From a virus (taxonomy: Duplodnaviria > Heunggongvirae > Uroviricota > Caudoviricetes): a DNA stretch of 9,363 nucleotides. Location of the stretch: positions 1 through 9,363 of the IMG/VR virus record IMGVR_UViG_2657244940_000008. One strand, 5' to 3'. The notes beneath the pieces were generated by a model. That model was not told the DNA's origin and ran no database searches. It was given only the letters and a program-made list of their open reading frames with translations. Of this stretch, positions 6,295-9,242 are shown piece after piece. The first letter of the stretch is position 1; every line of letters begins with the position of its first letter. Made by a program: the position numbers and the translations under genes.

Positions 6295-6621
6295 TCATAA
6301 CACCGTCGGACAACGCAAATCGTAAATCAGCACGGAAACAGAAAACGGCAACTCCCCCTGCACGAGGTCTTCCCGCTCCGCAAGATCCGGATTCCGGTAC
6401 AGCATCCCGGTCAGTCGCATGGCAGCCCCCTTCATCCGGGTTAATGCCTCACCCGGGATCAGTTCACCGTCCTCACGAATCACTTTATCCCGGCTGCCCT
6501 GAATGTAGGCCAGCAGCACGGCGGTAGCCTGACGAACCTTGTCCATCAGCATGTCATCATCCGCGTCATGGTCGACACGCAGATGTGCCTTGATCTCTTC
6601 CAGTGTCAGTAATGCCGTCAT
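6295..6621 (-). CDS. gp6-like head-tail connector protein (108 aa)
   Basis: Size and position immediately after the head gene; start overlaps the upstream stop as ATGA; sequence has the character of HK97 gp6-type connector proteins (by eye, no search). Confidence 0.7.
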   Translation of the reverse strand: MTALLTLEEIKAHLRVDHDADDDMLMDKVRQATAVLLAYIQGSRDKVIREDGELIPGEALTRMKGAAMRLTGMLYRNPDLAEREDLVQGELPFSVSVLIYDLRCPTVL

Positions 6622-9242
6622 TTTCCGTCTCCTGCATCCCGCCCACGTTTTGCAGCCAGGGTCCAGGCTGATGAATGAGCTTCTCCGGGTTTATCTTCGG
6701 TCATACTGTTGCAGTGCCACAACGAGCCCCCCCACGTCACCGTATCGCCGGGGTGGTAGGTTTCACCGGCTCTGAACACACCGCGGTAGAGCATCACCGG
6801 CAGGGAAAATGTTTTTTCCGTACGCAGGCCACTGCTCTGCCGGACCACCACAGAGAACAACCGCTCACCCGTCATGCTGACGTCAATATCGGCCACCCCG
6901 TCAACCAGGCATTCCCATCCCCGCATCCCGTGCGTTTTTTCATACGCCCGCCAGAGTCCGCCCTGGTGTGTGGCATACGTGCCCCGGGGAAAGGATTTTT
7001 GATCGTCAATGGCGGGGAGTATTTCCAGTGCCGTGGCATCACGCCCGTCCTGCGGAGCCGGCAGGGCACTCACCGCATCCAGAACCGCCTTCTGCAGAAC
7101 ATCCGGATCGTAGTCACGACCGTCGCGCGGAACAGGAATATGGCTTACGGCCTCTTTCACCATCTGCTCAAGCATCGGACGCACATCATCCGGGGTGATA
7201 CTTTTTCCGTCCGCCGGTAGCGGAATATTTGCGACCGCATCATTCACCGCCTTCTGCAGAACATCGGGATCATAGTCACGACCGTCGCGCGGAACAGGAA
7301 TATGGCTTACCGCCTCCTTCACCATCTGCTCAAGCATCGGACGCACATCATCGGGAGTGATACTTTTACCGTTCGCCGGTACAGGAATATTTGCGACCGC
7401 ATCATTCACCGCCTTCTGCAATACTTCCGGATCGTAGTCACGACCATCACGCGGAACAGGAATATGGCTTACCGCCTCCTTCACCATCTGTTCAAGCATC
7501 GGACGCACATCATCCGGGGTGAGACTTTTACCGTCCGCCGGCTGCGGAATATTTGCGACCGCATCATTCACCGCCTTCTGCAGAACATCGGGATCATAGT
7601 CACGACCGTCGCGCGGAACAGGGATATGGCTTACCGCCTCCTTCACCATCTGTTCAAGCATCGGACGCACATCATCCGGGGTGAGACTTTTACCGTCCGC
7701 TGGCTGCGGAATATTTGCGACCGCATCATTCACCGCCTTCTGCAGAACATCCGGATCGTAGTCACGACCATCACGCGGAACAGGAATATGGCTTACCGCC
7801 TCCTTCACCATCTGTTCAAGCATCGGACGCACATCATCGCCCGTCACGCACTTCTGTAATACCACAGACAGGGAAGCCAGTTTTTCTTCAAACATTTGTG
7901 CCTGCGAGGCAATCTTCCCCTCAAATGTGCGCTGTAAATCCGCCAGCACCGCAGCGAATTCTTCTCCCAGTGCACGAATAATGGACAGTTCCCGTTCCGT
8001 CATTTTCTCAGTATCCCCCCTGAACATCGCTTTCACTGCATCATGCTCTGTTTCGCTTATGGCCTTATTACCGTCAGATGCGCCGTCAGGCAGTTGTGAT
8101 GAAACTGTTTTCCCGGTCGACGCGAACGGATCCTCACGGGCATCACGACGGGACAGCGCCTCCAGACTGTAGTTCTGCTGCTGAAGATACAGTGCATCAC
8201 CGCCGGCCAGGGGCGGCAGGTTCTCCCGTTTACGGGCCTCATTGGGCGTGAGAAGCGTATTTTTCACCGCATCCCCCAGCGTTTTCATGCGCCGCTCACT
8301 GTCCATTCTCAGCAGCGTGGTGACATCAAATTCTGTACTCTCGTTTTCCCCTGTTTCCAGCGCCTCATCCAGTAACAGCTCAATGGACTCAATCAGCGTC
8401 TGCAGACACTGGGAATAATACTGCTGCTCCAGCGCCTCCACGTTGTCACTGGAAGGCGGCTGGCCAACGCCAATCTTGTAGGCCGGGACACGGAACACCG
8501 AACAGACAATTTCAGCCGTCATTTTCAGCTGTTCCACCGTCTGCGCATCCACCGGTGAAAACGTCGTGGGGTTATATTTCGCCCCGTTGCTCAGGATCGC
8601 CGTTTTCCCCGCATTTTCGCCGGTATACCCGCTGTCCCAGTTGCTCTTCAGTTTTTTCGCATTTTCTTCCGTTATACTGCCGGGGATCTCAATCACCCCG
8701 GACGGCCTGCCGCCATTTCTGAAAAAAGACGTTGAATTTGCCTGAATATGATGCCCCTGCGTGGCCGCCAGCCCGGCAGCATACACCGGCGGCAGCCCCA
8801 CAAGCGGATGAAAAAAACAGTTAAACCGGTCGTGGATCACTTCCCTGGCAGGCACCGTCACCGCCTCCGTGATCCCGCAGTTCCGGTCCGGTGTAATGCG
8901 ATAGAACACCTCGCCGTCATCCGCCACCAGAGGTTCAACCCGGCTCCAGTCCAGAATACGCAGTTCTTTGATCTGCCCCCGGGCATTACGGATTTTCAGC
9001 ACCACCGTATTGCCGTGACGCAGTTTGGCGTTCAGCCACAGTTCAAAAAACTGGATGCGGTTCTGCTGGGCGTTGGGACGACGACAGAGGCGGGCAATAT
9101 CCCCCCGGCGCGTTTCCCTGCGTATCCCATGCGCATCCGTCTGCATAAGACGCAGCCGCATTTTGGCGATATCCTGGGATATCAGCGAAATACATGCAAA
9201 CACCGCATGAAAGGAGAGGACGGCTTCAGGATCGGCTTTCAC
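6618..9242 (-). CDS. HK97-family phage portal protein fused in frame to a tandem-repeat region and a C-terminal aromatic-rich domain (874 aa)
   Basis: N-terminal ~385 aa show portal-like blocks (AVFACISLISQDIA, FFELWLNAKLRHGNTVVLKI, NAGKTAILSNGAKYNPTTFSPVDAQ, EIVCSVFRVPAYKIG). The same frame then runs through ~5 copies of a 54-aa repeat and a unique C-terminal domain. Only available start is GTG at 9240-9242. Stop overlaps the next gene start as ATGA (6618-6621). Confidence 0.8.
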   Translation of the reverse strand: MKADPEAVLSFHAVFACISLISQDIAKMRLRLMQTDAHGIRRETRRGDIARLCRRPNAQQNRIQFFELWLNAKLRHGNTVVLKIRNARGQIKELRILDWSRVEPLVADDGEVFYRITPDRNCGITEAVTVPAREVIHDRFNCFFHPLVGLPPVYAAGLAATQGHHIQANSTSFFRNGGRPSGVIEIPGSITEENAKKLKSNWDSGYTGENAGKTAILSNGAKYNPTTFSPVDAQTVEQLKMTAEIVCSVFRVPAYKIGVGQPPSSDNVEALEQQYYSQCLQTLIESIELLLDEALETGENESTEFDVTTLLRMDSERRMKTLGDAVKNTLLTPNEARKRENLPPLAGGDALYLQQQNYSLEALSRRDAREDPFASTGKTVSSQLPDGASDGNKAISETEHDAVKAMFRGDTEKMTERELSIIRALGEEFAAVLADLQRTFEGKIASQAQMFEEKLASLSVVLQKCVTGDDVRPMLEQMVKEAVSHIPVPRDGRDYDPDVLQKAVNDAVANIPQPADGKSLTPDDVRPMLEQMVKEAVSHIPVPRDGRDYDPDVLQKAVNDAVANIPQPADGKSLTPDDVRPMLEQMVKEAVSHIPVPRDGRDYDPEVLQKAVNDAVANIPVPANGKSITPDDVRPMLEQMVKEAVSHIPVPRDGRDYDPDVLQKAVNDAVANIPLPADGKSITPDDVRPMLEQMVKEAVSHIPVPRDGRDYDPDVLQKAVLDAVSALPAPQDGRDATALEILPAIDDQKSFPRGTYATHQGGLWRAYEKTHGMRGWECLVDGVADIDVSMTGERLFSVVVRQSSGLRTEKTFSLPVMLYRGVFRAGETYHPGDTVTWGGSLWHCNSMTEDKPGEAHSSAWTLAAKRGRDAGDGK
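7066..7840 (-). repeat. Tandem direct repeat array, 162-bp unit, about 4.8 copies, in frame inside the portal-fusion ORF
   Basis: The landmark aacaggaatatggcttac recurs at 7131, 7293, 7455, 7617 and 7779, an exact 162-bp period. Copies are near-identical at nucleotide level. Each encodes DVRPMLEQMVKEAVSHIPVPRDGRDYDPDVLQKAVNDAVANIPQPADGKSLTPD, itself two diverged 27-aa half-repeats. Confidence 0.9.

Follow-up and report, generated by a model that had tools for sequence, protein, structure and literature searches.

The window, as we call the whole 9,363-nt stretch that was analysed, carries phage head, neck and tail genes on the minus strand and a piece of host DNA on the plus strand. The following features were found:

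50..391 (-): gpM-like minor tail pseudogene with an in-frame stop at 293-295
384..6285 (-): neck and tail module (Pfam) with head closure, HK97 gp10-like and tail completion proteins, an Ig-like major tail protein, the chaperones G and T, and a 1080-aa tape measure
6295..6621 (-): gp6-like head-tail connector (Ad1; PF05135), its start overlapping the stop of the fused ORF (ATGA)
6618..9242 (-): fused ORF of 874 codons, a truncated portal reading in frame into a fibre-like gene
6618..8003 (-): fibre-like gene proper, 461 codons from the internal ATG at 8003-8001 (MTERELS...), equivalent to ORF59 of BP-4795
6621..7028 (-): C-terminal beta-rich domain of 136 aa (aa 739-874) with two CBM5/12-like hairpins
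7029..7838 (-): five tandem units of 162 bp or 54 aa (aa 469-738), from Tandem Repeats Finder and protein repeats
7845..7997 (-): N-terminal long helix of the fibre-like protein (AlphaFold2 residues 3-53, pLDDT above 90)
8015..8020 (-): G6 run in TTC AGG GGG GAT, from the junction alignment; G5 in two-gene relatives
8016..9242 (-): portal-derived part, aa 1-409 (PF04860 at aa 13-341, and TIGR01537)
9248..9363 (+): internal fragment of the host gene yfaX (IclR-family regulator), 100% identical to E. coli

The ORF at 6618..9242 starts with GTG and encodes 874 aa in the ORF listing of the window; the next ATG inside it gives an 847-aa product. The initial annotation had described it as a portal N-terminal half followed by a coiled-coil-like linker, five 54-aa tandem repeats and a C-terminal domain of about 130 aa, with its stop lying over the connector start. 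This description held. The ATGA was present in the ORF listing at 6618-6621, and Pfam Phage_portal matched aa 13-341 with an E value of 1e-80. In the AlphaFold2 model the linker (aa 416-458) forms a single long helix at pLDDT above 90, the repeats occupied aa 469-738, and the C-terminal domain measured 136 aa (aa 739-874). The claimed absence of capsid genes was also borne out, as none of the ORFs in the window matched a prohead protease or an HK97-fold capsid protein in Pfam. The fused ORF is already annotated as "phage portal protein" in RefSeq, and is known as EP2851_54 in phage 2851 and as phrog_2271 in PHROGs.

The portal part scored 271.8 bits against PF04860 (cut-off 39.1; aa 13-341) and 349.5 bits against TIGR01537 portal_HK97 (cut-off 112). 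By these curated HMM cut-offs it belongs to the HK97-family portals. It is truncated at its 5′ end. Similarity to intact relatives (L004 and L002) began at 9251, which is 114 nt into their portal gene, and about 41 N-terminal codons were missing by comparison. The GTG at 9242 is thus not where the native gene begins; it is only the first start codon available after a stop. No complete stand-alone portal gene (native start, about 400-490 aa) was found in the window, its 5′ end being gone. Phage homology also ended at 9251, where yfaX was joined through 4 nt of common sequence (9248-9251). Either a decaying prophage suffered a true deletion here or the yfaX join is an artefact of the draft contig's end; since the window spans that entire contig and the join sits at its edge, we treated the join as a candidate only. 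If real, it would be a second sign of decay beside the nonsense codon in the gpM gene, which is one sign of prophage decay; the nearest E. coli gpM alleles are annotated as intact.

In BP-4795, Stx2 phage 1717 and Salmonella phage FSL SP-016, the last of which is an isolated phage, the same DNA is organized as two genes. Two-gene relatives have a 440-490-aa HK97-type portal, followed by a gene in the -1 frame that overlaps it by ATGA. Our first homologue search was dominated by near-identical partial sequences of E. coli and contained no distant relatives. In other enterobacterial genera we examined nine loci (Phytobacter, Kosakonia, Enterobacter, Atlantibacter, Buttiauxella and Citrobacter); each had two genes in different frames with the ATGA overlap. 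These loci also keep the portal C-terminal peptide KAM[LIF]RG...K before the stop; their junction reads AGAGGA or AGAGGG in eight cases and CGGGGG in Phytobacter. In more distant viral contigs (24-42% identity), a separate Phage_portal gene lay directly upstream of the fibre-like gene in 10 of 10 and a gp6-like connector directly downstream in 7 of 10. When the collagen-rich member P0263 was used as the query, most matches were to collagen only, and L168, L171 and L195 alone were kept for the synteny tests. The two-gene layout is therefore most probably ancestral and the fusion derived. The ancestral order would have been terS, terL, a prohead-protease/major-capsid fusion, a small ORF, the portal (about 454 aa), the fibre-like gene and the gp6-like adaptor, and the TGA stop of the portal would have overlapped the ATG of the next gene (ATGA), which lay in the -1 frame.

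The difference between the two states was traced to a run of G. We aligned ten junctions: that of the window, four from prophages in E. coli chromosomes and five from phage records. Between them the frame differed by G5 versus G6 in TTCAGGGGG(G)AT alone, except for phi330, which had an additional CT. The records with G5 had a 454-aa portal ending ...FRGIL[KR]K at the stop, and a separate ORF beginning MTERELS or MNERELS at the ATGA. G6 was shared by the window and phages 2851 and YYZ-2008. Scanning IMG/VR for the exact pattern gave 116 loci, 40 with G6 and 76 with G5. Among the 102 loci with sufficient flanking sequence for haplotype clustering, the G6 loci fell mostly in two flank-haplotype clusters, whereas the G5 loci were spread over many. 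With two E. coli clusters of this kind and a divergent 1237-aa protein, P0232, that represents an independent portal-fibre fusion, such fusions may have arisen more than once.

The portal domain of the window is not followed by a stop because of the G6 run. In the proposed mechanism, gain of one G (G5 to G6) would put the portal stop out of frame, and translation would continue through the downstream gene; the resulting ORF would be about 807-915 aa in intact relatives and 874 aa in the window. In E. coli the Arg-Gly codons of the portal are AGG GGG, a G5 run. The sequence AGGGGG resembles a Shine-Dalgarno sequence and lies 11 nt 5′ of the internal ATG, and the C-terminal codons of the portal would double as a Shine-Dalgarno-like element of the downstream gene. 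By the ATGA overlap with a portal stop, the fibre-like gene of the window is no longer a separate gene, as it is in frame with the portal through G6. The internal ATG and the ATGA are nevertheless retained (8003-8000), with the adaptor next. As the G-rich element is kept as well, we infer that free downstream protein could still be produced.

It is thus highly probable that the 874-codon ORF consists of two neighboring phage genes, portal and fibre-like, joined by an extra G, and that the capsid genes lie upstream. The ORF at 6618-9242 is real, yet it is no new portal architecture. The initial annotation had proposed that a decaying prophage joined its portal to a downstream gene by deletion or recombination; the fusion was confirmed, but its cause was one inserted G in a G5 run. 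Its other proposal, an uncharacterised portal architecture with the capsid encoded elsewhere, was right about the capsid, which is upstream in relatives, and wrong about the novelty, since the sequence is already in RefSeq and PHROGs. A frameshift before a separate downstream gene, or an already annotated fusion with capsid genes upstream, had been named there as what would speak against a giant portal, and this is essentially what we found.

In intact relatives the order was terS, terL, protease/major capsid protein (MCP), small ORF and portal. The upstream protein, of 645 aa, contained Peptidase_S78 and Phage_capsid in one gene. Among eight ORFs from further upstream in the distant contigs, six were protease-MCP fusions and one matched the protease domain only; at one distant locus protease and capsid were separate genes. 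The protease and capsid genes are thus missing from the window because in this clade they lie upstream of the portal, and the phage sequence stops inside the portal. Fusions of the NF045541 type likewise combine both domains. However, the 645-aa protein scored only 50 bits against a cut-off of 525, which suggests a different fusion lineage.

The downstream part of the ORF belongs to a family of stand-alone, fibre-like proteins (phrog_1289; BP-4795 ORF59-like) that have an N-terminal helix, an IPxPxDG or collagen stalk and a conserved C-terminal domain; phrog_1289 matched aa 682-874 with an E value of 9e-215. We found 5,706 cluster representatives of this family at E<=1e-3, mostly 240-600 aa long, and only one of ten long members tested had a portal domain. 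The N-terminal helix is probably a coiled coil with a heptad-like pattern, and hydrophobic residues spaced 3-4 apart can be seen in the linker sequence. In the repeat region, Tandem Repeats Finder reported a 162-bp period with 4.7 copies and 93% matches (7084-7838). Each 54-aa unit comprises two 27-aa half-repeats, which makes ten helix-loop half-repeats in all, ending IPxPxDG. Units 1-4 differed by 6-16 of 162 nt, and unit 5 by 33-38 nt. Copy number varied between relatives. The helix-loop stalk of the window gave a low-pLDDT AlphaFold2 model as a monomer. Matches of TetR_C_35, DUF4244 and FliG_N to this region were driven by the repeats, with no single stretch passing, and were rejected, as was PF28083 "QatB", a faint precomputed match. 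In other members the stalk may be collagen: Pfam Collagen was found in 14 of 110 family members (best E 3e-21), and 40 of 150 relatives had at least six consecutive Gly-X-Y triplets.

The C-terminal domain was modelled by AlphaFold2 with pLDDT of about 97 and adopts, in the model, the three-dimensional fold of CBM5/12 modules. PF02839 gave 18.8-20.6 bits on the window protein, under the gathering score of 26.2. CBM_5_12 was matched by 55 of 110 family members at E<=1e-3 (best 3.2e-8). The family alignment contained conserved columns in this domain, and its conservation across genera was about that of the portal (dN 0.27-0.36 versus 0.21-0.31). Sequence and profile searches against solved structures returned designed helical-repeat proteins and weak CBM matches only. 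The fibre-like protein would thus consist of an N-terminal coiled coil, a stalk of variable length (helix-loop, or collagen Gly-X-Y in some members) and a C-terminal knob of two CBM5/12-like modules. The modelled knob resembles a chitin-binding module, and sugar binding is putative. The product probably forms a trimeric fibre of the virion, both the trimeric state and the fibre nature being our deduction from these features. Its conserved place between the portal and adaptor genes suggests that its anchor is the portal/neck vertex or the head. No study of this family came up in our literature search, which covered neck and head fibres as well as fusions of protease and capsid; virions were analysed by mass spectrometry in the phi330 paper, with peptide maps for short-tailed phages only.

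Other readings of the locus were considered. The canonical order of HK97 and lambda is portal, protease, scaffold, capsid and connector, and it would suit a deletion or recombination that took out the protease, scaffold and capsid genes and fused the portal to a foreign gene. We give this almost no credence. That order, with protease and capsid between portal and connector, was not found in any relative examined; the trio of portal, fibre-like gene and connector, with protease-MCP upstream, is kept down to 24% identity, and synteny rules the deletion out. Nothing was lost between the portal and fibre-like genes, since every relative examined has the two side by side and translationally coupled. 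It is also very improbable, though slightly less so than the next two readings, that a single extended portal of 800-900 aa is the native, selected form and the two-ORF versions are broken. PGAP does call the G5 loci "frameshifted", the copy in AP012530 is labelled a pseudogene, 40 of the 116 IMG/VR loci and phages 2851 and YYZ-2008 are fused, and P0232 was fused independently. However, every other genus has two genes with the ATGA overlap and the portal C-terminal peptide conserved, the genes are separate at 10 of 10 distant loci, the downstream family overwhelmingly stands alone, the G5 haplotypes are more diverse, and BP-4795, a sequenced Stx1 phage, is of the two-gene type.

The G run could also be a programmed recoding site, at which a -1 slip on G GGG before the rare codon ATA, or transcriptional slippage, yields a minor portal-fibre fusion that G6 hard-wires. 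The frames are indeed offset by -1, ATA follows G5 in most E. coli G5 alleles (ATT in BP-4795), and fused and unfused states both persist in nature. An upstream Shine-Dalgarno-like element, which is a known stimulator of frameshifting, is present too. But the slippery run is not conserved, since AGA GGA or AGA GGG stands at eight of the nine other-genus loci and G5 in Phytobacter alone, and an X XXY YYZ heptamer is absent. We rejected programmed frameshifting on the junction and synteny data, and consider it very unlikely. There is equally little probability that the G6 of the window is a homopolymer error of sequencing or assembly, with a true locus of G5 and two genes. The window is an entire draft contig of 9,363 bp, and in two clusters identical 660-bp flank haplotypes carry both G5 and G6. 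Against this, the 30-nt downstream haplotype of the window is mostly G6 (40 versus 23 G5) and is the most frequent haplotype linked to G6, which also occurs in complete genomes and older phage records.

Two adjacent genes joined by an extra G thus remain the preferred explanation, and several objections to it deserve mention. One is P0232, itself an independent portal-fibre fusion. The fused form is common and heritable, and thus maybe functional rather than damaged; phage 2851, which has it, is presumably an infectious, lysogenising phage. Some of the G5/G6 assignments may be homopolymer sequencing errors. Finally, the C-terminus of a portal normally faces the capsid interior, which fits poorly with a functional tethered external fibre. 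A speculative extension, which we think rather unlikely, is that a widespread virion protein docks on the portal vertex, that its covalent tethering is tolerated or even useful, and that the G run acts as a switch, heritable and now and then reversible, between free and tethered forms. Given the orientation of portal C-termini, this would imply either an unprecedented internal collagen/CBM-like structure or an unusual path of the portal C-terminus.

The finding itself is an ordinary one and is of modest use for annotation. In PGAP and several GenBank records the two separate genes, the ancestral state, are labelled "frameshifted" or a pseudogene, and the derived fusion is taken as intact. PHROGs (phrog_1289 and phrog_2271) and many records name thousands of stand-alone fibre-like proteins "portal protein", a label that reached the family solely through the E. 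coli fusion. Such annotation could score functional prophages as portal-defective, and may touch the published tables of O157 prophage defects. The family represents a large, conserved and so far uncharacterised group of structural genes between portal and adaptor in a big HK97-like clade. With a stalk of variable length and a sugar-binding-like tip, its product is a candidate head or neck fibre of Stx phages for binding to the host or the environment.

Several known systems resemble parts of this locus. The C-terminal domain is structurally like CBM5/12 modules such as the ChBD of Streptomyces ChiC (2d49), Serratia ChiB and the tandem-CBM chitin oligosaccharide deacetylase of Vibrio, although in Pfam the likeness is below threshold. 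Phage fibres that combine a collagen or helical-repeat stalk with a carbohydrate-binding tip include the phi29 head fibre gp8.5, the T4 fibritin whiskers and the collagen-like gp12 of SPP1. The tail fibres of Agrobacterium phages 7-7-1 and Milano and of Pseudomonas phage Pa193 were structural matches. None of these fibres has sequence homology to the window protein, and the window gene lies between portal and adaptor, not in the tail-fibre region. Portals of the P22 type have a C-terminal barrel, and head proteins such as SPP1 gp7 and Mu gpF are encoded beside portals or fused with them. The likeness is in the added polypeptide at or after the portal C-terminus, in the gene directly downstream and in the occasional fusion. 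The window differs in that its extension is a separate gene in relatives, and collagen and CBM would be atypical for an internal head protein; Pfam and NCBIfam found no Phage_Mu_F or related domain in the window ORFs.

The closest systems are BP-4795 (ORF58/ORF59), Stx2-1717, 2851 (EP2851_54), YYZ-2008 and E. coli prophages, which have 93-98% nucleotide identity to the window over 6500-9251. The window and the BP-4795/2851/1717 group have a common gene order, the 162-bp repeat family and the G-run junction. The window differs in lacking the first 41 or so portal codons and everything upstream, in being joined to yfaX, and in the nonsense codon of its gpM gene. It has five repeat units, and the lengths in the group fit two to seven. 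The module of the window thus belongs to the common head module of E. coli lambdoid prophages and Stx phages represented by BP-4795, 2851 and 1717.

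The initial annotation had described an 874-aa ORF whose stop overlaps the connector start as ATGA, with a portal-like N-terminal half, five 54-aa repeats and a C-terminal domain of roughly 130 aa. All of these parts were recovered in our analysis. The relevant window features are:

6618..9242, minus strand: fused ORF, 874 codons, GTG start (ORF listing)
6295..6621, minus strand: gp6-like connector gene, its start overlapping the fused-ORF stop as ATGA
8015-8020: G run at the junction of the portal and fibre-like parts
4368-5084, minus strand: major tail protein, with a C-terminal Ig-like domain (Ig_3 / I-set) at about aa 151-225
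3979-4401 and 3674-3955: G and T chaperone ORFs, in the usual arrangement
50-391, minus strand: minor tail gene similar to lambda gpM
9248-9363: yfaX fragment, matching an internal stretch of this host gene at 100% identity

Residues 13-341 of the fused ORF matched Pfam Phage_portal (E 1e-80), and the portal part scored 349 bits with TIGR01537 portal_HK97. Tandem Repeats Finder reported a 162-bp repeat at 7084-7838 (4.7 copies, 93% matches). At the protein level, this corresponded to five units at aa 469-738, each comprising a pair of 27-aa half-repeats ("helix + IPxPxDG"). Units 1-4 differed at just 6-16 of 162 nt, and the C-terminal domain that follows comprised 136 aa. The remaining ORFs were unremarkable neck and tail genes, for head closure, a gp10-like protein, tail completion, the major tail protein with its Ig tag, chaperones G and T, whose layout suggests a -1 frameshift product, and a tape measure of 1080 aa. 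In line with the initial annotation, the domain search found no protease or capsid-like protein among the window ORFs. Another run of six Gs is present within the portal coding sequence at 9101-9106 (minus strand, around codon 46) and is a further potential indel hotspot.

The portal is a single ORF in DEC4E (913 aa), SW071611 (807 aa), phage 2851 and YYZ-2008. It is given as two ORFs, or flagged "frameshifted" or "pseudogene", in BP-4795 (ORF58, 454 aa, and ORF59, 461 aa), 1717, F349, UCPROB-002 and DETEC-S792. One difference in the alignment was responsible: TTCAGGGGGAT, with five Gs (G5), versus TTCAGGGGGGAT, with six (G6). In the G5 form, the portal ends with ...KAMFRGIL[KR]K-TGA; this stop codon overlaps the next gene's ATG (AAAATGA), and that gene begins with MTERELS or MNERELS. 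In the G6 form, the portal stop is out of frame and both genes are read as one. The window ORF is thus a fusion of two translationally coupled genes by a 1-nt insertion. The fusion that the initial annotation had offered as one reading stands, although its cause was one extra G (G5 to G6) rather than deletion or recombination.

Scanning IMG/VR for the exact patterns gave 40 G6 and 76 G5 loci. Haplotypes could be clustered for the 102 loci whose flanks were long enough; among these, G6 was mostly confined to two clusters (22 G6 with 3 G5, and 4 G6 with 1 G5), and G5 was scattered across many. In other enterobacterial genera, all nine loci had two genes in different frames with an ATGA overlap; the junction codons were AGAGGA or AGAGGG in eight and CGGGGG in Phytobacter. 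The isolated Salmonella phage FSL SP-016 also had two genes. Therefore, the two-gene state is ancestral. A synonymous change from AGA GGA to AGG GGG in E. coli created a slippage-prone G run, and a gained G produced the fusion. A purine-rich element 11 nt ahead of the downstream ATG is a putative ribosome-binding site of that gene. As the internal ATG and the G-rich element are retained in the fused form, a free fibre protein could still be made.

Other interpretations fared less well. That the long portal is native and the original form is unlikely, because outgroups have two genes and the downstream family stands alone. A programmed -1 frameshift at the G run seems highly improbable, considering that the run is missing in 8 of the 9 loci of other genera. 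A sequencing error might account for G6 in the window, a possible but minor concern given that the fusion was found independently elsewhere. Nor was an uncharacterised portal architecture, the other initial proposal, borne out: relatives hold two genes and the sequence was already in databases.

In the plaque-forming siphophage phi330 (PMC12502783), G6 is accompanied by an inserted CT about 70 nt upstream, and the reading frame changes once more near nt 2400 of the region (3875-6617 of its locus). The CT insertion ends the portal early and re-separates the genes; with the second change, three ORFs result. Because this genome was obtained by manual Sanger sequencing, its record may contain errors; the frame changes may be such errors or genuine compensating mutations.

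The C-terminus of a portal normally points into the capsid interior. Phage 2851, which we take to be infectious, carries the fused form, which suggests that the fusion is tolerated. For the window, whether the fused portal assembles is a moot point, because its ORF lacks a native 5′ end. Prophages in more than 4,000 E. coli genomes shared 93-98% identity with the region, as did 93 deposited phages, which were mostly long-tailed Stx phages (e.g. BP-4795, 2851, YYZ-2008, 1717, WGPS6 and phi330). This homology ends at 9251, 114 nt into the portal gene of relatives. The yfaX-portal join was absent from all complete E. coli genomes searched. As the window spans the full length of draft contig CDRA01000390.1 (assembly GCA_000947375.1, 9,363 bp), which has assembly breaks at both ends, the join lies only 112-116 nt from a contig end. 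It is either a real deletion or an assembly artefact. The terminal 116-nt yfaX segment would suit a k-1 overlap at a graph branch. Thus, the join may be chimeric, or an intact yfaX may be present beside it. Independently of this join, the gpM homologue shows a sign of decay: an in-frame stop at 293-295 (GDGY*QRRP versus GDGYEQRRP in relatives). Its closest alleles (97% identity, E. coli complete genomes) are annotated intact.

The downstream gene, similar to BP-4795 ORF59 (phrog_1289), belongs to a large family in its own right: 5,706 cluster representatives match at E<=1e-3, of which 649 reach E<=1e-30, and members are mostly 240-600 aa long. Among ten long members tested, only P0232 (1237 aa, about 20 helix-LPEPEPLPDI repeats) had a portal domain, in a fusion independent of the E. 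coli one; this single predicted protein may be a real fusion or a gene-calling or frameshift artefact. CBM_5_12 matched 55 of 110 members and Collagen 14 of 110, and at least six consecutive Gly-X-Y triplets occurred in 40 of 150. For the window protein, AlphaFold2 confidently predicted an N-terminal helix of 50 residues that shows heptad-like spacing; the ten helix-loop repeats were modelled with low confidence, and a beta-rich C-terminal domain at pLDDT ~97. Conservation of this domain and the portal was about equal (cross-genus dN 0.27-0.36 versus 0.21-0.31), and dN/dS between the window and BP-4795 was ~0.1-0.4. The downstream ORFs of E. coli were 299, 353, 407, 461, 515 or 569 aa long, 54-aa steps that fit two to seven repeat units. 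From the domain make-up, the variable stalk length and the position next to, and coupling with, the portal, we infer with moderate confidence a trimeric fibre with a carbohydrate-binding-like tip, which would sit at the neck/portal vertex or on the head.

The fused sequence was already deposited as "portal protein". For the C-terminal half and for thousands of stand-alone relatives (phrog_1289), this label derives from the E. coli fusion and is misleading; PHROGs phrog_1289 and records such as that of Rhizobium phage RHph_X2_26 apply it to the stand-alone fibre-like protein. The NCBI annotation pipeline and some GenBank submitters tag the portal of the ancestral two-gene (G5) state as "frameshifted" or as a pseudogene, as in these loci:

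L003, 7887-10633
L005, 4887-7471
L126, 187-2771

What was found is not a new portal architecture but an ordinary gene fusion, in a prophage family that is common. Two points remain of interest: the annotation error, and a fibre-like family that adjoins the portal gene and is both very widespread and uncharacterised.

The initial suggestion that the capsid is encoded elsewhere proved correct. Intact relatives have the order terS, terL, a 645-aa "major capsid protein", a 73-aa ORF, portal and connector. The 645-aa protein contains both Peptidase_S78 and Phage_capsid; thus, protease and capsid form one fused gene upstream of the portal, which is why neither lies between portal and connector. This gene is missing from the window contig. 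Loss of capsid genes from between portal and connector is refuted by this synteny. A small ORF (70-113 aa, phrog_829), without a Pfam match, is conserved across the clade between the protease-capsid gene and the portal, whose start it overlaps in E. coli. Examples, the last two in distant loci, are:

L004, 4720-4941
L141, 5238-5579
L143, 5281-5523

In distant viral contigs, whose identity to the query family members was just 24-42%, a separate 440-490-aa Phage_portal lay directly upstream of the fibre-like gene in 10 of 10, and a gp6-like connector directly downstream in 7 of 10. In a distant locus, L168, the gene after the fibre-like one (8065-8508) instead has Gp80 (podophage GP4 fibre I protein) as its Pfam match. 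Among eight further-upstream ORFs tested, six had protease and capsid domains together and one had the protease domain only; one locus encoded protease and capsid in two separate genes. The portal, fibre-like and adaptor genes therefore form an old trio, and the entire clade deviates from the textbook HK97 gene order.
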